Positions 24,160-59,398 of a stretch of 64,000 nucleotides of DNA are shown in pieces (position 1 is the stretch's first letter; every line of letters begins with the position of its first letter). A program made the position numbers and the translations under genes. The DNA lies in the NCBI GenBank assembly GCA_022813865.1, contig JALDZX010000022.1, positions 1 to 64,000 on the forward strand, read 5' to 3'. The notes under the pieces were generated by a model, which made no database searches, was not told the DNA's origin, and saw only the letters and a list, made by a program, of their open reading frames with translations. Source of the DNA: Xylographa opegraphella. Lineage: Eukaryota.

Positions 24160-26001
24160 TCAGCTGAGGTAGACACCATCCCATCCCTTGCCACCAGCTA
24201 CATTGCCCCCAACTGCTTCGCCGTGCATGATACCCTCAACATATGCGTATCCGATCAGCCAGTGGAGGACATGTGGACGATCTCGGTCGAAGAACAATTT
24301 GTTGTTCAGTCGCAGGATAAATGGTGTACGTCCACCCGCTAGGATGGCTACTTTGTCGCCTGCCAGGGTTTGAAGAGGGCCCAGGCCGATAAAGCCACTC
24401 CTTGTGCGGAAGAAAATGCGGGTTGTGACAAAGGGGAGCAGATGTTCCAAAGCCTGAGCGGTGTTCTTGTTCCGGAACTCGTCAGGAGTGTAGCCGCCAG
24501 CCTTCGTGACCCACTTATGCCACTTTTGGAAGAAGTCGGATCTTGTCGAGTCGGGATTTGTAGCGTTATGATGGTGAGACCTTTGTTTGGGGACCTTAGC
24601 TGGTCCCCAGATAGTATTCTGCGTAGCTGAAGATGAAACAGGAGATCGATGATGTGTTCCAGCGATCCGCTCCCACTCGAGGAAACAGGCGTTGAAAGCC
24701 TCGGCAAGTTTTTCTATAGACTTCACGCTCTTTAGTAAAACTTGGCTGGTGCTCAACAGCACAATCTCGTCGATATGATAGGCCCCTATAGCTAGCACGG
24801 ACCTTCCTAGAATAAGACGAGGGTTCGGTTTCATGTATCCGCATGAATTATATTCGAGTGTGCTTTTGAGAAGCGTACCATGTCCCCGCAGGTCTTTCCT
24901 CCAGTCGGGCACCCACGAAGGTAATCCAGGTCCTTGCTTCTTGAACGTGGAGTATAGAAAGATATCGAGATTTTGTTCGGATTCAATGATGGCCCGCGTG
25001 GTCTGCTGGTAAACATCGGAAACAGGCAGTGTGTAATCGGGCCGCAAGTTCATCTCCACCTCTGCCAAAGCCAAGAGACCATAGACCTTATCCCTTTCAT
25101 CCGAACACAAACCATTGGAAAAGGACCTTGTGGCCCATAAGAGGCTCCTCTTTTCGATCGCTCTCGTTCTGTTATCGATAAGCTTATACATGTTGTGTAT
25201 TGTATTCTCATGTGTTGACCCCAAGGATGCCTGCAAATCTTTTCTACTGCAGCATACGAGATGTTTCTTGAAGCTGTCAGCAAAGGAGCGGAAGACACTC
25301 CAGGGTAGCGTCGTTCTGCCGCACACAATATCCGCCTCCTTGCAGAGGGCGATCTCCTGAACGCACCATATTCTCAACCACCAAGGTCGGTTCATCAGCT
25401 TCTTCACAGCTTTGAAGCGCTTAGCAACTTGCATCTGCCAGGCGTGTCCATTCCATCTGGGCGCGAAGAAGATATCTGATTGCTTGAAATGTATATCCGT
25501 ACTTAATGCAAGCATGGTATGCAGAGCTAGATCGCTGTCATCCGATGCTTCACCCAACCAGGCCAGAACACGAGTAGCGGACCGGTATATCGATCCCATC
25601 TGTTGTACTTGGTGGGACCGCTCCTGCAAATTCGCTTGATCTATAGAGAGTGCATCAACCCAGAGCCAACGCGGATCATATCTATCCCGGAGGTATCGTA
25701 GAGCATCCCAAAGGTTGGATCCAATGCAGATCTCATGCCCGTCTAGTAAGATTCGCTGGCCGGAATGATTGGTTCCCCACGCATAGGACAATGCTTCATA
25801 CGGGGGACGGTCATCCAAAGAGATCTTGTTCAACTCGCAGACAATAGGTGCCGAACCAGTACCAGGATATAGACAGATCAGACGAATCTCGTGATCTGCT
25901 GGATCCAGTCGATGTTTCGAATAGATTGCAGAATACTCCGGGGACTTCGAGCCGGAGTATAGATTTTGAAGCTGGTTCTGAAGCCAGGTATTCGATTGCA
26001 T
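24160..26001 (-). CDS. HET-domain (HET-6-like) heterokaryon incompatibility protein
   Basis: YEALSYAWG, LWVDALSIDQ, QVQQMGSIYRSATRVLAWLG, WWLRIWCVQE, DERDKVYGLL, LPSWVPDW, LIGYAYVEGIMHGE. Confidence 0.95.
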   Translation of the reverse strand: MQSNTWLQNQLQNLYSGSKSPEYSAIYSKHRLDPADHEIRLICLYPGTGSAPIVCELNKISLDDRPPYEALSYAWGTNHSGQRILLDGHEICIGSNLWDALRYLRDRYDPRWLWVDALSIDQANLQERSHQVQQMGSIYRSATRVLAWLGEASDDSDLALHTMLALSTDIHFKQSDIFFAPRWNGHAWQMQVAKRFKAVKKLMNRPWWLRIWCVQEIALCKEADIVCGRTTLPWSVFRSFADSFKKHLVCCSRKDLQASLGSTHENTIHNMYKLIDNRTRAIEKRSLLWATRSFSNGLCSDERDKVYGLLALAEVEMNLRPDYTLPVSDVYQQTTRAIIESEQNLDIFLYSTFKKQGPGLPSWVPDWRKDLRGHGTLLKSTLEYNSCGYMKPNPRLILGRSVLAIGAYHIDEIVLLSTSQVLLKSVKSIEKLAEAFNACFLEWERIAGTHHRSPVSSSATQNTIWGPAKVPKQRSHHHNATNPDSTRSDFFQKWHKWVTKAGGYTPDEFRNKNTAQALEHLLPFVTTRIFFRTRSGFIGLGPLQTLAGDKVAILAGGRTPFILRLNNKLFFDRDRPHVLHWLIGYAYVEGIMHGEAVGGNVAGGKGWDGVYLS

Positions 26002-28398
26002 CGTGACGGGTGGTCACTGGCGGACTACTGTTTGCGTAGCTTAGCCTGGCATAGTGACCACGATCGGTAGCTGCTTCGCTTCTGGGGGATTTCCTCACAG
26101 GTCCGACAAAGGAAGCGAGTCTTACGATGGCACACTCTTGTCGCCTCCTGTAAGAATCAGGCTGGGGATATTTCCAGAGCTGAGGCTTGAGCTCAAATAG
26201 CAATGCACTCATGTGCGAGTGAGGAATAACGCAGCAGACAGAATCAAGTCGTGTAACCAGGAAGGGGAACAACAAAAGAAAATCATGTGTAAAATGTATC
26301 AAGCTTTCCTCAAGATTGGCATTGCTATCAAACGACAGCCGGCATCGTCCGAGACTATGCGTGTCTGAGGCACGGCCTGTGATCAAGAGTCATCTCATTA
26401 TCATTGATGAGGAATTCGGGGAAGCCCAAAGTCAGGGGCGCGAGGCAGACTGCTGAATCTGGGCTGAAAGTGTCTGGCGCTTGACAGTCTAGAACAGCCT
26501 CCGAGCGCTTGGCGCAAGCCATCTGGCGTCTCCGCCAAACGTGCCTCTGTATAAGTGGTGGATCGAGAGATGCTCTGGCAACCGTAATAGAGAAATACAG
26601 CTGGCCACAGCTGGCCGCAGTCGTGAGGGTGAGAAACAAGAAGTGTCCGGCTCGATCACGATGACCCAGGATCGAGAGAGGTCGTGAAAGGATTATTTGA
26701 CGTTTGGTTAGGCTCGTCCTAGTGGGGCCGACCTCCAAAACTTCGTAGTAACCGGCTAATATTGGGGACCGAGCCGCCTACCTAGCCTGGAGACTTAAGA
26801 GCCTCCTCCCCTGACACAATATTCCCGACACAATACTAATGTCCGAACTCCTATTTCTTTCGCCATCCGTGTGTCCAAATTTACGTAGTACTTTCGGATT
26901 TCAGTAGTCTCAACGTCTACTTAGTACCAAGGCACTAAGTTATCATTGCTAGCTCGAGCCTTTGAGCGACAGAGAAACCTGAAAAGCTACATAAAAGTGA
27001 CTTTTTGGGGAGTTGCATTGTATCACCGCGAGCCGAGCTACCTCGCTGACAGGTACCTTACTTTACTGCTCAAGTCGCGAAAAAAAAAATATGGATAGTT
27101 GGAAACTGATCAGCAGGAAGAGGACATGAACTGCGAGTTGTCCACTGAGCTCACCTCGCTGTTCCACATTACTGAACAGAAGTCACTGGAATTTTTTCAA
27201 ATGGAAGGGTCTCCTGTCACAGATACAGTATTGAAAGTTGAGGAGCAACTGTCAGGTCTTCAGCCGCCGAGTATACCTCGGTGCTACTCAACGACGAGGA
27301 AAAGCAATATTTCAGGCAGTTGGACACCGAAGATATGATACACCATTGGGATTCTGTAGCAAGATTTATCACCATCGGTAAGCTTTTTACGGCAGAGAAT
27401 GTTTGAACCAGCTCCGGTTTTGGAGATATCAAGTTGAAGTTGCAAGCGGATCGAGAATGAGTTATAGAACAAGGGCCTGTGCTTTAACATCTGCCCCCGT
27501 CGCAAGATGAACCAATCAAAATGCATTTCTGCAATAGCTAAGGCCAGAGCATAATGGACAGGTAGGTATCCGGAGGAGCACCTTACGTTTGAAAGATGCT
27601 CTCAATACTCCCCTATCATCAGCTTTAAGGCGGGGACTTTGGAGGCGGCCTTGATCCAACTATATTGGATGCACGCAGAGAAGCGGTGGTTCTAGTGGCA
27701 GTGCTCCGTGAGCTTGGGTGCGCAAAGTTAGTGACAGATCTGCGTTGGAGAGCGCATTGGCAAAGCGAGAAGGGTGTCTATTCAGATAACTTGGCATCTT
27801 GAGCAACTTCCAAGGGAAACGTGCAACACCCTCTAGCAAGCTTGTCGATGTTGAGTATGAAGCTTGCGATTCAGCAGGAAATGAAGGAGTAAACTTCTAG
27901 GAGAAGGGCTTGAAAAAGAACTTAAGGGGTCAGGGCCTCACGGATAAGAATCACTGGTAGTGGGTCATGGGTTTCGTAGGATGTGCGTTCAGAGGTGGCC
28001 ATTGTGACTGACTCTCTGTAAGATCCTGGAAACCAGCGGATGACCCTACCATACCCTGTAGATCTTCGGTTGGTGGAAGTTCAAGCAAGCTTCTTACATA
28101 TGGTCCTTCAACTCCAGATATGCGCTCATAAAGTGTGCCTCACGCTCGATATCTATTACATCTGCCCTCACACATACAACTCTCTTTCTGTAGAAGAAAA
28201 AACGATTCCTGCGTACGGAAGTCATCGAGACAAAATCGAGCCACAGTGGAAGTCGCGATACAATCAATGTACTGTTATGTAAGATACTACACGCTCCTTT
28301 GAACGGAGAAAGCATATCGATGGCGGAGCGGAAACCATGACCGGCATATCGGATGTTCCGACGAGGCTTGGCATTAGCTCCTAACCACTCTCGCGGTT

Positions 28399-28462: not shown

Positions 28463-28512
28463 NNNNNNNNNNNNNNNNNNNNNNNNNNNNNNNNNNNNNN
28501 NNNNNNNNNNNN
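28463..28512. other. Assembly gap (N run)
   Basis: Run of n characters. Confidence 1.
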
Positions 28513-33482: not shown

Positions 33483-36400
33483 TCAATTCCAACCTAGAGA
33501 GTTTTCTGCCATTACTGGAGCGCTGATGTTTTGTCGTCCAGAGCTGCCGCCGCTTCGACCGCTGCCTCTCGAGTCGCGCCCGCTGTAGCCATATGTGTCA
33601 TAATCGCCGCCGCTGTAGCCTCTTGCTCCACTCATTAGTGCCGTACCGGCACCGCTCCTGATCTCTCCATGGCTTTGCGACATACTCGATGTGTCAATCA
33701 GAGAGGGCGATCTGCGGTGAATTGAATTCCTCTTCCGGTATCTCTTGGCAACGAAGAACATTGCGGCACCGTAGAGCGCAGCGCCAGCAACAACCCCAAC
33801 ACCAATACCAACAGAAGCAGCTTTCACAGAACTCGAGTTGTCAGTACCCGCTCCTATTGGCGCGCCCTCGGTAACGACGGCACTGGCGGCGGATGTGGGC
33901 GAGCCAGTATTGCTTCCAGGATTAGCACCACCGAGATCACCACCAGCAAGAATCGGGAAGGAAGGATTGATCATGCTGACGAGAGTATTGACACTGTCGT
34001 TAGGGTTGTCGTACAGTGCACTGGTAGGCGTATGGATGTCAAGACTCAGATCATTGACGAAACTGGAAGGAATATATGCCATAGCTAGAGTCGTGACATA
34101 ACCTAGTGTAGCCGTTGTATCATATGGTTGAAGAGTCTGCATCGTGATGCTTGATACGTCGAGGCCAAGACCATATGCTAATCCCATGGGTAGATACGTG
34201 AACAGCTGATCTATTGATTTATAGTTTGAAACCACAAACTCGTAATTCAAGGGGAACAGAAAGCCGACCTGGACGAGAGTCGTGTTGTCCGGCTGTTGTG
34301 GGATTATACCACTAGGTGGGGCGACGACACGGGGCAACGCTGATGGAATCCCAGTAGGAGCGTTGGAAGCCGTGGAAGGCACGGGACTCGAGGCGGTCGG
34401 ATCGATAAATATGCTGGTAGGTAAGTACTGCGATGTAAGAGCATCTGATCCAGTAGGCACAAGGCTTGTTGGACCAGTAGTAGCAAATGAGACAACAGGA
34501 CTGATAGTGCTTGGGGCTGCGCTCTCAGATGCACTGCCGGAGACGACAGGCAATGCAGTGCCTGTGAGGGAACTCGTAAAAGTTGTCCCTGAGGCAGTGA
34601 TCACGGTTACATCAGATAAAGCTGATACAGATTCAGACGGAGACGAGCCGTTTGTGGTACTTGTCGCACTTGGCGGCACTCCGGTATCAGTGAGTGTACC
34701 AGAAATCTGTGAACCAGAGACCGTCGATGCTTGAGACACACTGCTTATAGCAGTCCCTCCAGAGATAGATCCCGAAGCGGTTGAAACCGGAACAGATACA
34801 ACTCCTGAGCTCAACGAGCTACTCCCACCAGTTATAGAAGCTCCCGGCAGGGTAGATCCGAAAGTATTGGTAGTAGAGGCGGGTAGGGCACTTATTAATG
34901 AAGAGCCAGTGACCCCACTAACGGTGCCGGTAGTGGCTGTTACGGAACCGGTGGGTGAGACTCCGATCGTGGAGATAGATGCACTCGCAGAAAGTATGAA
35001 GGACAGACTCACTGCAGTATCTGTCGATACAAGAGTGCCAGTCAGGAGGGTTCCAGAGGTCGTGATTGGTGGTATCACTACAGGGAGCGATACAGTTGAA
35101 CTTGCCACAAACGTGTCGGTAGGTATCGAGATCAGGGTCTCTGTTGGAGAAGATGTAGAAATTGGGATAATTTCAGTACCTGTATTAGTTGGCGACGATA
35201 CAGGAACAGGAAGTACCGAAACAGTTGTCGGCGCTGAACTCGGGATAGAAATTGTTTCTGTCCCAGTAGAAATATCAGTCGGCGTGAGAGTTGGAACTAT
35301 TGGTATCACGGTGGTGTCTGTTGGTGTAGGTAGTGGGAGTGACACAACAGGGGATGTTCCAGTCGGAGCAGAGATTGGCAGTGATACTATTATAGAGGTA
35401 TCTGTCGGGGCCGAAAGTGGGAGAGACACAACCACCGAAGTGTCGGTCGGGGCAGAGATAGGTAGTGATAAAACCACAGAAGTATCAGTCGGTGCGGAAA
35501 CTGGAGATATCACCACAGAAGTCCCAGTCGGTGCGGAAACCGGAAGGGATACTACTATAGAAGTTCCAGTGGGAGCAGAGACAGGAAGCGATATGACCAC
35601 AGACGTGTCAGTCGGAGCGGAGATTGGAAGCGATAGGACCACAGAAGTGTCCGTCGGAGCGGAGATCGGAAGCGAAAGGACCACGGAAGTGCCAGTTGGA
35701 GCTGAGATTGGAAGTGATATAACTAATGAGGTATCTGTAGACGCAGAACTTGGAGGTGGTATTAACGTGTCAGTTGGCGAAGAGCTTGGAATAGGTGCAG
35801 CTGTGGTGTCAGTCGGTGCAGAAATCGGAACCGGCACGACCGTATCTGTCTCCGTGGCAGTTGGGATGGGACTCGGTACCGGCGAGAGTGGAGTGTTAGT
35901 AGGCGCAGAAGTTGGGCTTGGTGTAGCCGTCTCCGTCGGAGCAGAGATTGGAACGGGCACCACAGTATCTGTTTCTGTGAGCGTTGGTAATGGCGCAGAA
36001 ACAGGAGCTGTTCCAGTAGGAAGCGGAGCAACAATGGACGACAATATCGACTGGATTATTGATGATAGTACCGAAGGAACTGCAGTTGGAAGATCCGTTG
36101 ACAAAGGAACCACCGAGGATATAGGCAGCGGTAATACTGTGTCGGTTTGCTGAGCACTCGTTGCATCGGAAGAAGCAGAGACAGGGACTACAGTCGGGAC
36201 AGAGCCTAGAGTTACCGAATCTGTGGTTGGAATACTCGCGGGAACCACTGAGGGGAAGATTGTCCCTGTAGATGTTCCACTAGGCGCAGCTGAAGCTGGC
36301 ACAGTGGGCGGGACACTTTGAGAAACCGATACACTATTCGATGGTTGAGACGAAGGAACAGCAGTATCAGTCGGGGGAGGCGGGGTAGGCGTATCTGGAG

Positions 36401-37196
36401 GTGTGTCCGAGGGTAATACTGTAGGTGTGGGTGTGTCCGAAGGGAGTACTGTAGGTGTTGGAGTGTCCGACGGGAGTACTGTAGGTATCACTGTGTCTGA
36501 GGATATTACTGTAGGTATCGCTGTGTCTGAGGGTAGTACTGAAGGTGTCGCTGTGTCTGAGGTTAGTACTGTAGGTATTGATGTATCCGTAGGTGTATCT
36601 GTTGGTAAAGGAGGAGCTACTGTAGGAGTCTCCGAAGGTTGAGCCGTGGGTGTAGGTGTAGATGTATCCGTAGGAGTGTCTGTTGGCAAAACTGTAGGTG
36701 TAGGACTGTCGGTCGATACATCTGTAGGCGTAGGTGTGTCCGTAGGGGTCTCCGTTGGCGGGGGAGGAGGAGAAATGGTTGGAGTGTCCGTTGGTACATC
36801 TGTAGGAAGACCTGGCGAGGAAAGCGGACTGGAAGTCGGTAATATATCTGAAGATTGCAAGGACTCCGTCGTATCGGAGATACTTGATACCAAACTGCTG
36901 AAGAGACTTTCGAGAGATGATGTATCTCGCCGCGAAGCCAGTGATGAATCTGGTTGATCTGCGGTTGTCACCGTATCAGGCAATGTTGCGGGAACGGAAG
37001 TCGGTGTCTCTGCAGGCGTTGATGCTGGTGTCGTAGTGTTTGAGAACACTTGACGCTTGACATGCCGGGGGAAGTAGTGCCTACGCTCCAGAGCCGTTTC
37101 CCGTGGTTGCGGAGGTACATTGAAACCGCATACTGGACCAAGGACAGACACAAACGCAAACGACGCCACGAGAGCATTTGGAGTGGTTCGGACCAT
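33483..37196 (-). CDS. MSB2: Signalling mucin, Msb2/Hkr1 type
   Basis: Signal peptide, long S/T/P-rich repeats, juxtamembrane VQVGFLFPLNYEFVV domain, one TM helix, and cytoplasmic tail ending ISAPVMAENSLGWN. Confidence 0.92.
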   Translation of the reverse strand: MVRTTPNALVASFAFVSVLGPVCGFNVPPQPRETALERRHYFPRHVKRQVFSNTTTPASTPAETPTSVPATLPDTVTTADQPDSSLASRRDTSSLESLFSSLVSSISDTTESLQSSDILPTSSPLSSPGLPTDVPTDTPTISPPPPPTETPTDTPTPTDVSTDSPTPTVLPTDTPTDTSTPTPTAQPSETPTVAPPLPTDTPTDTSIPTVLTSDTATPSVLPSDTAIPTVISSDTVIPTVLPSDTPTPTVLPSDTPTPTVLPSDTPPDTPTPPPPTDTAVPSSQPSNSVSVSQSVPPTVPASAAPSGTSTGTIFPSVVPASIPTTDSVTLGSVPTVVPVSASSDATSAQQTDTVLPLPISSVVPLSTDLPTAVPSVLSSIIQSILSSIVAPLPTGTAPVSAPLPTLTETDTVVPVPISAPTETATPSPTSAPTNTPLSPVPSPIPTATETDTVVPVPISAPTDTTAAPIPSSSPTDTLIPPPSSASTDTSLVISLPISAPTGTSVVLSLPISAPTDTSVVLSLPISAPTDTSVVISLPVSAPTGTSIVVSLPVSAPTGTSVVISPVSAPTDTSVVLSLPISAPTDTSVVVSLPLSAPTDTSIIVSLPISAPTGTSPVVSLPLPTPTDTTVIPIVPTLTPTDISTGTETISIPSSAPTTVSVLPVPVSSPTNTGTEIIPISTSSPTETLISIPTDTFVASSTVSLPVVIPPITTSGTLLTGTLVSTDTAVSLSFILSASASISTIGVSPTGSVTATTGTVSGVTGSSLISALPASTTNTFGSTLPGASITGGSSSLSSGVVSVPVSTASGSISGGTAISSVSQASTVSGSQISGTLTDTGVPPSATSTTNGSSPSESVSALSDVTVITASGTTFTSSLTGTALPVVSGSASESAAPSTISPVVSFATTGPTSLVPTGSDALTSQYLPTSIFIDPTASSPVPSTASNAPTGIPSALPRVVAPPSGIIPQQPDNTTLVQVGFLFPLNYEFVVSNYKSIDQLFTYLPMGLAYGLGLDVSSITMQTLQPYDTTATLGYVTTLAMAYIPSSFVNDLSLDIHTPTSALYDNPNDSVNTLVSMINPSFPILAGGDLGGANPGSNTGSPTSAASAVVTEGAPIGAGTDNSSSVKAASVGIGVGVVAGAALYGAAMFFVAKRYRKRNSIHRRSPSLIDTSSMSQSHGEIRSGAGTALMSGARGYSGGDYDTYGYSGRDSRGSGRSGGSSGRQNISAPVMAENSLGWN
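35330..35730 (-). repeat. Degenerate 39-bp (13-aa, SLPISAPTDTSVV-like) coding tandem repeats in MSB2
   Basis: About ten copies visible in the translation; synonymous positions have diverged. Confidence 0.85.
36380..36600 (-). repeat. 30-bp (10-aa, PTVLPSDTPT-like) coding tandem repeats in MSB2
   Basis: Repeating gtgtc(c/t)ga...tactgtaggt units on the + strand. Confidence 0.85.
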
Positions 37197-37267
37197 TTCG
37201 GAAGACTTTGTATATATATGGATACAGTAATTAAAGATAGTTGGTTTTGTAGAACGAGCGGTTCAAC

Positions 37268-43376: not shown

Positions 43377-43823
43377 AATAGTTGCCAAGGATGGCAAAGC
43401 GAGCGTATGGAAAGGTAGATGAGCATAGGTCAATAAAAATTGCAATGAGAGACGTATGAGGTAGAGGACGATATTGTCCATAGGGGGACGGACCTATTCT
43501 AGGAAGCATTGCAAGGAGTTTTCTCTACTTCTAGTAGCCGTAGAAGTTCCAGGAGTGATGTACTCCTATTGAGGGGTCGAGAAGACCTTGCAGAATATCA
43601 GTATCACCATTAGTACATTAGATAATGAGCAGCAGTGTTTGAAAGCACAACAACGGTTGTATTGTTCCATGTCTAGGCTGAGCCGTGCTCCTGCCCCAAC
43701 ACTTATGTTAGCCAATGTCTTCCACAATGTCCATTTCTGGTAAGTTGAAAATCGTCTTCCCCGCTCAGTTGTTTGATGCATACAGAAATATATATCTATA
43801 AGATTTTGCTCGAACAAAACCAC

Positions 43824-43973
43824 GGGGAATTAGCGCAATGGTAGCGCGTGGCTCTCCTAGTACTCGGACGAAAGTCGTAGTCAAGCCAAGGTTGAGGGTG
43901 TAGGTCTTTCCTCAACTTTGATTTTACATTCCCCAGTATACTGATTTCCTACAGTCGAGTCCCTTGTTCCTCG
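43824..43973 (+). tRNA. tRNA-Arg(CCT) with a canonical intron (43860-43882) and a spliceosomal-type intron (43900-43954)
   Basis: Acceptor stem GGGGAAT/GTTCCTC, D-arm GCGC-AATGGTA-GCGC, anticodon stem TGGCT/AGCCA with CCT at 43856-43858, T-arm GAGGG-T|TCGAGT-CCCTT, discriminator G. Mature length 72 nt. T5 run at 43987. Confidence 0.9.
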
Positions 43974-44317
43974 ATATGTTGTCTTGTTTTTGCAGTTTTT
44001 GGGACTATTTGGCCTGCGTTGTGGGCGGAACACGGACCGCCAAAAACCTCGCTCGCTTGGATCGTCAGTTGATTGATGTCTGTCTCGTCAGTTTCTTTTA
44101 GCTCTCTTCGAGTTGCACTTTCGGATCAGATTATCGTTCCAGCATGCTGCGTGTGCTTAAGAATTTCACTTTGTAATGGTCACACAGTTGATCACGGGCA
44201 TACACATTCATGGTATACGTTGAAGCTACTGGAAGACTATTGAACAATAAATTGGCGCTAGCTTTTGTCCCAGGCATATTCTTATCTCCTCAATAAACTT
44301 GAGCATACCCCCGAACG

Positions 44318-45368
44318 ATGCCTTTCTCCCACCACAGTCATTCGGGTCAATTCTGCCTTCATGCGAAAGACGACCTGGAAGCCATTGTCCAAACGGCCAT
44401 CAGTAAAGGGATGGGGACTCTGGTCCTGACCGAGCACATGCCTCGGGACCAGGAGACGGACCTGTACCCAGAAGAGGTTGGTTCCTCGCCCACCATGAGC
44501 TCCGCACGCTGAGTGGGGTTTAGATCGAAGCTGGCAGCACGACGGACAGCCTGTTCAAGACATTCGACGACTACTACATCGAAGCAAAACGACTGCAGTC
44601 GTCATACTCGCTACAGATAGACATCCTGGTTGGCGTGGAAACAGACTGGATACGCCCATCTTCTGAGCAGCTTATAGGAAACCTCATAGAAAAATACAGC
44701 TTCGACACCCTGATCGGCTCCGTGCACCATGTCCATGGTATTCCCACGGACTTTGACCGGGAAACATACGAACGGGCTCGGGCGGTATCTGGAGGCACGG
44801 ATGAGATGCTCTACGCGGATTACTACGATGCGCAGCTGAAGATGCTGGAGGCAGTGAAGCCACCGATTGTGGGCCATTTCGATGTCATCAGACTTCTGAG
44901 CGATGACCCGAATGCGAGCATGAAGAAGCACGACGTGGTGTGGAATAGAATCTTCAGGAATCTATCCTTCATATCAAGCTACGGTGGTATGCTCGAAATC
45001 AACACGGCGGCACTCCGGAAAGGGATGGATGAGCCGTACCCGCAAGGCGAGGTCTGCCAGGTTCGTTGCCGATACGCTGTCGGGTGATTTGGATGGCTAA
45101 TGAAGCCCAGGAGTTTTTGAAGATGAACGGAGCGTTCGTCCTGTCGGATGACAGTCACGGCGTTGGTCAAGTGGGATTCGGCTTCACGAGGGCGGTGGAG
45201 TTCATGGAAGGTATAGGTGTCCGGACGTTGATCGTCCTGCAGCGGGGACTGATGACACGAGACGCTCGCTTCCGAGGAGTGTTCGGACGGCCGGTGCGTG
45301 TCCCAGACCTTCAGAAGAAGCATACGTTCTTCCAGGCTCCAGGCACTGCAGCAAACAGCCGGCCATGA
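44318..45368 (+). CDS. HIS2: Histidinol-phosphatase (PHP family); exons 44318-44476, 44524-45060, 45111-45368
   Basis: MPFSHHSHSGQFC, LTEHMPR, GSVHHV, VGHFDVIRL, EINTAALRKG, LSDDSHG. Confidence 0.94.
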
Positions 45369-47474
45369 GAGCCACATACCAGGATCATTATCAGTGGCCA
45401 GAACTTCCTTGCGATTGATGTGACGAGACTAAGACCAGCTATCCAGCGACGCGTTTCGGCAGATCCATTGTCGGAGCATTGTACCCAATCAACACGGTCT
45501 CGCGGTCGGTCTGGCTCAGTTGGCATGTGAGGTAAGTTGCTTGCAGCTTGGTAAGGTAGCGTATACCTCTTTCCAGCAGTCCCACAAGAGAAGGCCTAGA
45601 ACTCTGCGCGACGTCTGGGCAAAGAGGGGCAGAGAATAGAGGGGCCGAGTCCGAGAATAGCACCCCGCTTTTGCGACTCAGGTACCTGGAGAACGGGCCT
45701 TCGGAGGGACCGCCGCTAGCTTTCAGCAAAGTTGAATGAAAACCGAGACTGCGTCGATAACGACATCGGAGAAGGCGGCGGAGGTATCTTTGCTCGTCCT
45801 TTCGACGCTTCCTCTTTACGTGATCTGGTCATGAATCCTTACTGGACTAGCACCACGGGTTACAGCTGCCAGCACACAAAGACATGGCCATCGGTATCTA
45901 AGGTACTGGGATGAATTGATTGCGCACCATTCTTGCAGAGCTATCTACCACGATGACGAACTGCTCCCGTTGGATAGGGGATGAGCGTGGCCTTGGATGA
46001 TTGTCCGTAGCAGTTCCTCTCTCCGGATGTACCAGGGACCCAGTACGGCTGTCGTGTCACGGCCGGCGACGGGAGGATGCCGCATACTCAACCGCATACG
46101 CATTGCCGCTTCGGATGGAGGCGCATATGCATCTCCTACCTGAGCTACGGAAGGGGCAGTCGGGAGCAGAGCCTGATGGTCTCTACACCGAAGCCGGGTC
46201 AAGAGAGGCAGCCCCGTTGACGTTGATGACGGTCGGTCCCTCGAGATGCTCGCAGTGATCGGGGGCTCTGCGCATGCATCGTGACTGCTCTGGGGGCGTC
46301 GGTTCACAGCAGATCGAAGAACGGGCTGAAGATTGCTGTTGAGATTTCGTGTGGCGGCTGCAGGGACCAAAGTATCGACCTTCTACGATGGGCAAACCGA
46401 ACCTGGATCCTGTAATCCGGTAAGGTATCCTGTACGGAGGACTCCGTGGACCGTATCCTGTATCCTGTATTATTCAATCTAATGTACCACGTACAGTAGA
46501 TACATTAGGTACCTTCTGCTTCATCCTTCGCCCCTCTCCCGTCCGCCTTCCCGCCGCAGGTCAGTTCCTCCGACGCGGGCCCTGCCACCCGACTGATACA
46601 GCACCCCGGGAATGGATTATTCCATTTCGTAATATGAATGCCCTTGACCACGCCTCCACGCCAAGCGACGAAAGCTCTGCCTACTCGCTTCTGCTGATGT
46701 GCGTCTCGCTTGTGGTGGATCGAGCAGTGGAGCCAAGTGGGATGTGGCCCGCCCGAATCACCACTGGGTGCGTTTGCGGACTTCCATCATCCGTCCTCCG
46801 CAATCATCCTCCCCCCCCAAAAAAGAACACTACCCTCACACCAGCGAAGCAGTCTGAGCAACCAACATCCTAGACGGCATCCACTTCCTCTGCCCGCGTC
46901 CAGCGACCCCCCTCCTTCGTCCCACACGCCTCCCAAGGTCCCCAAAACCCACTGACTGTGGTCGTTGCATTGGCCACCTTCGCAGCCGGCTCACGGGAGT
47001 TGGCAGCCATCGCTGACAGGACCCCGTCGAGGACAGGCCTCAGACAGGCCTCAGTCAAGCTGAACGGCCGGCCTCTGCTCTGACACCACAATGGCGCACT
47101 CGTGCTCCACCGGGGGGAATAGGTCCCCATATTACCAATGTGACCTAGCTACCCACCATCACAAACATAAAGGTACATTCCTCCGAAGCTTGCCCCTCCT
47201 TCTCCACCCCTTGCTCGGAGCTGCAGTGAATTGACTTTGGCCTCCCCATTCACTTCGGCCGACTAACTGAAAAGACCTTAAAGATTCCCGGTCCTGCCGT
47301 ACATTGGCTTCGAAGTTTATTCGGCGACGAAGTCTCTTCCATAGCTGACATACCGACAACGTCGTCCTGCCTCGTACCAGGACCACCTTCACTTGAATCC
47401 ATACTCTCTGAGCTTGTTACCTTCGAGCTTCCTCTCCCGTTACTCAACGGGTATCACCTCGACACTTTTCCACA

Positions 47475-58569: not shown

Positions 58570-58735
58570 CTTCTTAAGGATGGCTGGCGTGTGGGCCCTA
58601 CATGCTGCTGGGAGTGAAAGACAGCTCTGTCCTTTCAGTCGAGAAGAGTGTGTAGGTGCAAAGACCAAGCTATCAAACAAGCCTCAGTCAAATTTGTAAT
58701 AATATTGTAAAATAAGAACTCTCTCGCTTAAAACA

Positions 58736-58890
58736 GGCCTGATGGTACGAAAATACGAAATCGAGTTGAGTTTGTCTCTTTGCTGACAATTTGCACAGGT
58801 CTAGTGGTATGATTGTCGCTTCGGGTTCGCCTGAGTATCTTAGATACTTAGATTTGTGACAGGCCCCGGGTTCAAATCCCGGTCAGGCCC
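58736..58890 (+). tRNA. tRNA-Pro(CGG) with a spliceosomal-type intron (58745-58798) and a canonical intron (58826-58854)
   Basis: Acceptor stem GGCCTGA/TCAGGCC (perfect), TG|GTCTAGTGGTATGAT, anticodon stem GTCGC/GTGAC with CGG at 58822-58824, T-arm CCGGG-TTCAAAT-CCCGG, discriminator C. Mature length 72 nt. T5 run at 58897. Confidence 0.92.
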
Positions 58891-59398
58891 TGAATATTTT
58901 TGTCGTCATTCTCGATCGCGGTACGACGGCGGTACATGGGCACTATCGTCTTTATTCACTGTTGAGAACAATGTATGCACTCACTATAGCCAGACAATCG
59001 GTAACTTTTTGCCAACCTAAACCAAGCGACAGTCCTTCTTTGGGTAGAAATGCCTGGGCGTCTTGACGATACAGATTATTTACGATCCATCGAGCTTGTG
59101 GAAACATCAATCGATTACGCTCTATTGGTCGTTGTGAATAACATCTATTTGAACGTGCGAAATGTGCAGCGCAGAGACGTAGTTTCATACTAGATACCTA
59201 TCATAAGCTCCATACGCGACGTTAAGGAAATGGGGTATTTTAGCAATAGCAACACCAGGAAATGCCATATCAATACAGTGATGATTTCCGTAAGCCATAG
59301 TCCTTCCGTGAAGCACAATATCATCTGCGAGATTCAGCAATAGTCCTCTAAACCATGACACCGTAGCTCCAGTCTTCAATAATATCAACATGCTGTAA

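Follow-up and report, generated by a model that had tools for sequence, protein, structure and literature searches.

Eukaryotic tRNA introns are placed between nucleotides N37 and N38, and their removal by a protein endonuclease is contrasted with spliceosomal splicing, in the accessible part of a review (PMC10275265). The tRNA-Arg(CCU) gene considered here is located at 43824–43973 (+) in a 64,000-nucleotide stretch of DNA from Xylographa opegraphella (GenBank assembly GCA_022813865.1, contig JALDZX010000022.1, positions 1–64,000 of the forward strand; hereafter the window) and occurs in three pieces, separated by two intervening sequences at 37/38 and at T54/T55 of the tRNA. The first of these (43860–43882) resembles the canonical introns, but the one in the T-loop differs in both position and type from those covered in that part of the review. 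This T-loop sequence has the signals of a spliceosomal intron, and two of its segments are complementary to the 5' part of the tRNA in which it lies.

Ectopic spliceosomal introns are known from the nuclear rDNA of lichen fungi (Bhattacharya et al., 2000, as cited in the available text of PMC8527467), and a 57-bp intron of this kind from Cladonia grayi was spliced in yeast from rRNA made by RNA polymerase (Pol) I (PMC8527467, same text). X. opegraphella, a lichen-forming ascomycete of the Lecanoromycetes, is a host of the same kind. As far as the available text of PMC8527467 allows comparison, the tRNA-Arg intron and the rDNA introns have in common the lichen-fungal host, the small size and mRNA type (55 nt vs. 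57 bp), and the location in a stable, structured RNA not produced by Pol II. Unlike the latter, the tRNA-Arg intron has a tRNA as its host, splits an internal promoter box, and is located near an intron of the endonuclease type; the exon-mimicking fold found in it is not described for the rDNA introns in the same text. A precedent among small Pol III transcripts is the U6 snRNA of Schizosaccharomyces pombe, which has a spliceosomal intron, and intron-containing snRNA genes occur in Rhodotorula (PMC5855946, in the part available). The U6 intron is attributed there to reverse splicing at the catalytic center, whereas a tRNA is not part of the spliceosome.

The tRNA genes of Archaea and Cyanidioschyzon merolae can likewise contain more than one intron, also at positions other than 37/38, and are missed by gene finders; there, exon–intron pairing defines the splice sites, and the tRNA endonuclease cuts at a bulge–helix–bulge (BHB) motif (PMC3978253; PMC4090602, both in the accessible parts). 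In contrast, the BHB register fails for the tRNA-Arg T-loop intron, whose signals are of the GT-AG type with a branch motif. Pairing of an intron with the end of its own 5' exon is also a feature of self-splicing introns: in the EBS–IBS interaction of group II and in P1 with the internal guide of group I, the terminal bases of the 5' exon are bound by an intronic stretch as part of catalysis. Similarly, an intronic stretch of the tRNA-Arg intron pairs with the 5' exon end and could hold this exon after the first step of splicing. However, with 55 nt it is far too small for a group I or group II intron and contains no ribozyme domains; the pairing would at most assist the spliceosome. A full-text literature search, from which most subscription journals were out of reach, found no earlier account of a nuclear tRNA gene with an intron of spliceosomal type.

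Anatomy of the Split tRNA-Arg Gene

When both intervening sequences were removed, ARAGORN recognized a 72-base tRNA-Arg(cct) with a flawless cloverleaf, the anticodon, and the conserved D-loop and T-loop bases. Among four script-joined variants of the locus, this tRNA was reported in two, exactly those without 43900–43954, and in one of these 43860–43882 was called as a canonical 37/38 intron. The T-loop sequence TTCGAGT is restored solely by deletion of 43900–43954, and shifting either boundary by a single base abolishes it. The gene consists of the following elements:

43797–43803 (+), TATA-like sequence TATAAGA, 20 nt upstream of the mature tRNA 5' end
43824–43859 (+), exon 1 (ARAGORN): acceptor 5' strand GGGGAAT (43824–43830), D arm, and anticodon stem 5' strand, ending at A37
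43831–43841 (+), A box TAGCGCAATGG, intact, with 0 mismatches in the A-box scan
43856–43858 (+), anticodon CCT in exon 1
43860–43882 (+), canonical 23-nt intron of the endonuclease type at 37/38 (ARAGORN and register test)
43883–43899 (+), exon 2: A38, anticodon stem 3' strand, variable loop AGGTT, T stem 5' strand GAGGG, and T54
43900–43954 (+), 55-nt GT-AG intron between T54 and T55, splitting the B box
43955–43973 (+), exon 3: from T55 (TCGAGT), with T stem 3' strand CCCTT, acceptor strand GTTCCTC, and discriminator G
43987–43991 and 43996–44000 (+), two T5 runs 14 nt past the gene, resembling a Pol III terminator

The 23-nt intron conforms to the BHB register, with five of five pairs in the anticodon stem, three of four in the central helix including C32–G, and 3-nt bulges. 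The longest T run inside the gene is a T4 (43922–43925). In the spliced form the B box GGTTCGAGTCC has 0 mismatches to the consensus. The best B-box match in the unspliced DNA, CAGTCGAGTCC, has three mismatches, and the locus thus lacks the usual combination of a contiguous A box and B box. The U6 intron of S. pombe is said, in the title of a report, to carry a B-box-like sequence; the tRNA-Arg intron contains no B-box match and instead breaks the B box of its host. Standard searches miss the gene: ARAGORN detected no tRNA in the whole window with the intron option on or off, and Rfam yielded no family over the window at the gathering threshold and none at E-values up to 10 within 43600–44200. 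The host is a nuclear tRNA gene, presumably transcribed by Pol III.

A Spliceosomal-Type Intron in the T-Loop

The boundaries of the T-loop intron follow from the restoration of the T-loop, independently of any splice signal, and they are GT and AG. The signals within it are:

43900–43905 (+), donor GTAGGT at the 5' end
43941–43945 (+), branch motif CTGAT with the branch A at 43944, 10 nt from the 3' end
43952–43954 (+), acceptor site CAG at the 3' end

The full set of donor, branch, and acceptor signals occurs in one of the 127,684 55-nt segments on both strands of the window, namely the T-loop intron itself. With a length of 55 nt and a GC content of 0.38 it is similar to the local introns, which measure 47, 50, 48, and 74 nt and are located as follows:

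44477–44523 and 45061–45110, introns of the histidinol-phosphatase gene, validated by tblastn of public protein P0001
42631–42704 and 43132–43179, introns of the DUF1774 gene, read by eye with Pfam continuity in support

Its signals and length also agree with the consensus of four Fusarium species, for which the part of the source at hand gives donor frequencies of G100 T99 A74 A42 G93 T66, CTRAY in 91%, YAG at the 3' end, and a median length of 57 nt (PMC5677156). By these sequence criteria, 43900–43954 is a U2-type (GT-AG) spliceosomal-type intron.

Endonuclease-cut and self-splicing introns were considered and rejected as alternatives. Classification as a BHB intron cut by the endonuclease was dismissed on the basis of the 54/55 position and the register test, in which the central helix has three of four pairs with an A–A mismatch, the weak inner helix is mismatched at its first position, and the outer exon–exon helix is missing, with one isolated Watson–Crick pair and one G–U pair in five positions. 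Neither in the window nor in 43600–44200 did Rfam report a match that would indicate a group I or group II ribozyme. As to a repeated element or introner, a second copy of the intron was not found in the 64-kb window, and the GT-AG intron of the second split tRNA gene (see below), with 24 of 57 alignment columns identical, is unrelated to it apart from the splice signals.

Pairings Between the Intron and Its Exons

According to the original prediction, exonic bases upstream of the T-loop junction can pair over 12 bp, two of them G–U, with an intronic segment so that the donor lies in the loop, and a second segment, ATTCCCC, complements the 5' acceptor strand perfectly, better than the true 3' strand does. 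Both statements proved exact to the letter and coordinate. The elements concerned are:

43887–43898 (+), exonic hairpin arm CAAGGTTGAGGG: last two bases of the anticodon stem, variable loop, and T stem 5' strand
43899–43908 (+), 10-nt hairpin loop TGTAGGTCTT, with the junction 43899/43900 and donor positions +1 to +6
43909–43920 (+), intronic hairpin arm TCCTCAACTTTG (anti-exon segment 1), antiparallel to 43887–43898
43928–43934 (+), ATTCCCC (anti-exon segment 2, the decoy acceptor strand), complementary to GGGGAAT at 43824–43830 with seven of seven Watson–Crick pairs
43948–43952 (+), CCTAC close to the 3' splice site, able to pair with the donor GTAGG at 43900–43904

The 12-bp helix is composed of ten Watson–Crick and two G–U pairs (G43890–T43917 and G43898–T43909). 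The true 3' strand GTTCCTC (43966–43972) forms two wobble pairs with GGGGAAT, and its duplex energy is −7.0 kcal/mol, compared to −9.7 kcal/mol for the decoy.

The significance of these pairings was assessed with dinucleotide-preserving shuffles of the T-loop intron. An exon–intron helix of at least 12 bp was found in 13 of 1000 shuffles of the whole intron, in 21 of 1000 when the splice signals were kept, and in 345 of 20000; the corresponding mean lengths of the longest helix were 8.3 bp and, with splice signals kept, 10.1 bp. Duplex energies as low as the real one were reached by 24/1000 and 19/1000 shuffles. A hairpin of at least 12 bp that brackets the donor with a loop of 3–14 nt occurred 89 times in 20000, and a complete Watson–Crick complement of the acceptor strand (7/7) 302 and 333 times per 20000 in two runs. 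Both features, the 12-bp helix and the 7/7 complement, appeared jointly in only 7 of 20000 shuffles. The pairing is a real, non-random structure in an unusual gene.

Predicted Fold of the Precursor

In the predicted ensemble of the 150-nt precursor, the 12 pairs of the hairpin have probabilities of 0.83–1.00, the true acceptor stem 0.56, the decoy acceptor stem about 0.42, and the true T stem 0.00. When the flanks are included, the hairpin is part of the minimum free energy (MFE) structure as well as of the centroid, in which the decoy acceptor is used. The hairpin keeps a probability of 0.92–0.99 at 15, 25, and 37 °C and with a second parameter set; three alternative parameter loads returned identical numbers and are counted here as one such set. 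Folding of successive prefixes gives the hairpin a probability of 0.99 once 43920 is present. From 43935 onward, 38 nt ahead of the true 3' strand, the decoy acceptor stem has a probability of 0.96, which decreases to 0.41 only upon completion of that strand.

Forcing the four cloverleaf helices on the precursor changes the ensemble free energy from −45.7 to −37.5 kcal/mol, a cost of approximately 8 kcal/mol, and the donor GTAGG then pairs with CCTAC beside the 3' splice site. The same pairing is found in the MFE structure of the isolated intron and has a probability of 0.00 in the real precursor. Once the T-loop intron is removed, the cloverleaf becomes the MFE structure whether the canonical intron is present or not. 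The unpaired probability of the donor (positions −3 to +6) is 0.76, compared to 0.24–0.45 in five local introns and 0.33 ± 0.15 in shuffled introns, none of which (0/500) reaches the real value.

In the first histidinol-phosphatase intron, a small GAGG/CCTC hairpin (44470–44495, +) is predicted, with the donor (44477) in its 6-nt loop. This miniature of the tRNA-Arg arrangement is probably a coincidence.

A Second Split Gene, tRNA-Pro(CGG)

A motif-free screen was performed in which every GT..AG segment of 40–130 nt was deleted on both strands and each of the resulting 43,292 constructs was submitted to ARAGORN. Two tRNAs spanning a deletion junction were obtained, the tRNA-Arg gene and a tRNA-Pro(CGG) gene, to which a match in the B-box scan had also pointed. 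The screens together, with GT..AG and seven other boundary pairs, comprised 454,602 deletions and gave 14 junction-spanning calls, none of them outside the two loci; they include inferior alternative deletions and miscalls, and the CT..AC hits are the same two deletions seen on the complement strand. The tRNA-Pro gene is organized as follows:

58736–58890 (+), tRNA-Pro(CGG) gene (deletion screen and ARAGORN)
58736–58744 (+), exon 1, 9 nt
58745–58798 (+), 54-nt GT-AG intron, GTACGA..CTGAC..CAG, between nucleotides 9 and 10, splitting the A-box region
58799–58825 (+), exon 2, between the two introns
58826–58854 (+), canonical intron, 29 nt
58855–58890 (+), exon 3, the last exon
58869–58879 (+), B box, intact
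58897–58901 (+), T5 run past the gene end

In the window, tRNA-Pro too was missed by Rfam and by ARAGORN at default settings, and spliceosomal-type introns interrupt both of the two tRNA genes identified there. Upstream of both genes lies a common block, ATAAGA..CTCG..AAAAC, in register (43797–43823 and 58711–58735, +). From its sequence, it may be an extragenic TATA-like promoter element able to compensate for the split internal boxes. Two additional tRNA candidates from the A-box and B-box scans, at 45512 and 48695, were rejected since no tRNA arms were recognizable on reading.

Possible Function of the Fold and Alternative Explanations

We estimate the probability that the exon-mimicking fold has a cis-acting role in splicing at roughly 40%; on the basis of the folding models, a function of the pairing in the T-loop intron is plausible. 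As the transcript emerges, segment 1 would zip onto the strand of the variable loop and T stem and form the 12-bp hairpin with the donor in its loop. Segment 2 would next capture the 5' acceptor strand while the true 3' strand is still unmade. Hairpin and decoy together would block the alternative fold, in which the T stem is closed, the GTAGG and CCTAC ends of the intron are paired, and the donor is buried. The fold could thereby serve in cis as both a splicing aid and a timer, keeping the donor readable by U1 in a small, strongly structured RNA that is probably a Pol III product. From the first to the second step of splicing, the pairing may also hold intron and 5' exon together. During this time, the acceptor/T-arm unit recognized by RNase P, RNase Z, and export factors would be held back. 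Removal of the intron by the spliceosome would then make the cloverleaf the best fold, so that the ends could be trimmed and the canonical intron cut by the tRNA endonuclease. We infer the transcription of the tRNA-Arg gene, its splicing, the order of the steps, and any benefit of the design.

Several results weigh against such a role. The fold predictions stem from a single family of thermodynamic models that leave out proteins, modifications, and kinetics. Within these models, the decoy fold envisaged by the original prediction stands in part: a non-tRNA fold with the donor in a loop is indeed obtained, but the decoy acceptor stem has an equilibrium probability of 0.22–0.41 across temperatures and of 0.05 with the second parameter set. 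A further proposal, that branch point and 3' splice site stay accessible in this fold, was not supported, as their exposure is ordinary and is equaled by 145/500 and 75/500 shuffles, respectively. The stability of the whole 181-nt region is likewise ordinary, with a z-score of −1.07 and 26 of 200 shuffles folding as stably. The excised 34-nt hairpin has a z-score of −4.17, a value inflated because this segment was picked for being a hairpin. With shuffled introns the T stem is absent as well (mean probability about 0.03), and its blocking by the real intron is therefore not special. If G–U pairs are permitted, 12035 of 20000 shuffles (60%) pair the G-rich acceptor strand fully, which indicates that base composition helps. 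The donor window itself, at −16.2 kcal/mol, is far more stable than those of the five local introns (−2.7 to −10.6 kcal/mol). In fungi, folding near donors influences splicing efficiency and introns generally favor weak folding of the donor region, according to the part of PMC4574748 that was accessible; the structure modeled here is atypical and could equally impede splicing. Finally, the tRNA-Pro intron shows nothing comparable. Its alignments to its exons in either orientation are matched by 830–1938 of 2000 shuffles, its helix tests (480/500 and 166/500) and donor exposure (199/500) are ordinary, and the true acceptor and T arm are formed in the MFE structure of its precursor. Pairings of the tRNA-Arg type are thus not a general requirement.

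The pairings might also be a relic of the way in which the intron arose. Its derivation from a duplicated tRNA 3' end, which the original prediction had offered as an alternative, was abandoned, because the direct similarity to the 3' part is matched by 803 of 2000 shuffles. The intron is significantly similar only to the tRNA 5' part in reverse complement (score 17, reached by 42/2000 shuffles), which would fit a birth scar without present function: a templated inverted copy of the adjacent 5' exon, made for example by fold-back repair synthesis and later shortened. The order of the segments, complementing positions 42–53 and then 1–7, is that of an inverted copy with a deletion, and the tRNA-Pro intron does without such pairing. 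However, just 19 of the 55 intron bases are involved, the seven bases between the segments match nothing, and the junctions lack a visible flanking direct repeat such as filler-DNA repair leaves behind. Moreover, both imperfections of the helix are G–U pairs that preserve the pairing, a slightly better fit to selection than to neutral decay, though this concerns two changes only. Because these are the only data, an inverted copy and selection for pairing are not separable, and we consider an origin of this kind without a current role somewhat unlikely. That chance produced the pairings, aided by the composition of a pyrimidine-rich intron beside G-rich tRNA 5' strands and noticed post hoc, appears distinctly unlikely. 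Shuffled introns already form long helices on average and mostly pair the acceptor strand when G–U counts, the tail frequencies of the single features are only about 0.013–0.021, and many other pairings might have been picked out instead; against this stand the rarity of both features together and of the donor-in-loop hairpin, and the donor exposure that no shuffle attained.

The pairings would be irrelevant if the locus were a dead or dying tRNA copy struck by an intron-like insertion, which the split B box, with its three mismatches in the best genomic match, and the failure of standard tRNA finders might suggest. We regard this as highly improbable in view of the flawless cloverleaf with the usual invariant positions and the perfect B box after the removals, the complete splice signals, the TATA-like upstream block common to the second tRNA gene, and the T5 runs just downstream. 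The two-intron design is shared by tRNA-Pro, likewise located in the window, so that one would have to postulate two independent intact pseudogenes, which is unlikely. It is hardly conceivable that the tRNA splicing endonuclease cuts the T-loop intron and that the pairing belongs to a relaxed BHB motif. BHB-dependent introns at non-canonical tRNA positions are known (PMC3978253; PMC4090602, as far as available), and three of four pairs form in the central-helix register, but this 4-bp helix contains an A–A mismatch, the outer helix between the exons is lacking, and the inner one is weak. The hairpin, in addition, places the junction in a 10-nt loop and not in a 3-nt bulge, and endonuclease cleavage would offer no explanation for the complete signature of GT-AG, branch motif, and length.

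A cis-acting role of the fold could be part of a wider scheme, in which tRNA genes of this host are routinely split at their Pol III boxes by spliceosomal introns, and in which the tRNA-Arg intron has evolved to guide the folding of a pseudo-tRNA with an intron-supplied 3' half. This structure, formed through the two anti-exon segments, would present the donor to U1 and tether the short uncapped 5' exon to the intron from one catalytic step to the next, a spliceosomal counterpart of the EBS–IBS pairing of group II. Until splicing has occurred, it would also withhold the acceptor/T-arm unit from export and from RNase P and RNase Z. Taken as a whole, this combined scenario seems unlikely.

Host and Genomic Surroundings

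An exon of the neighboring gene matches histidinol phosphatase from Xylographa opegraphella with 100% identity, and five further proteins of Xylographaceae, including other Xylographa species and Lambiella insularis, match it at 70–85%. Two pattern scans for orthologues among bacterial and archaeal genome contigs, which might contain fungal contamination, gave 0 matches each. At 24160–26013 (−), a 617-amino acid (aa) open frame encodes a protein with a HET (heterokaryon incompatibility) domain, which agrees with an affiliation to the Pezizomycotina. A 1259-aa open frame at 33483–37262 (−) has no Pfam match, and the opposite strand contains an open frame of 472 aa; a strong GC skew of +0.25 extends around the larger frame (34–38 kb). 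A run of 50 N at 28463–28512 represents an assembly gap.

A candidate GT-AG intron of 46 nt (43740–43785, +; GTAAGT..TTGAT..ACAG) is located 38 nt upstream of tRNA-Arg and outside the assigned open reading frames. Given this candidate, there is a possibility that tRNA-Arg lies within a spliced Pol II transcript.

Implications

Judged by its sequence, the design of tRNA-Arg would belong with the ectopic spliceosomal introns in fungal structural RNA genes, and its splicing is predicted. If this holds true, two splicing systems meet in one small RNA, in which an mRNA-type intron interrupts both T-loop and B box. This raises the questions of how a gene with a broken promoter box is transcribed, how the spliceosome acts on a tRNA scaffold, and how many tRNA genes of lichen fungi have been missed. 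The exon-mimicking fold provides a concrete hypothesis of an RNA structure that orders processing steps; even as a mere birth scar, it would offer a rare clue, at the level of sequence, to how a spliceosomal intron was created.

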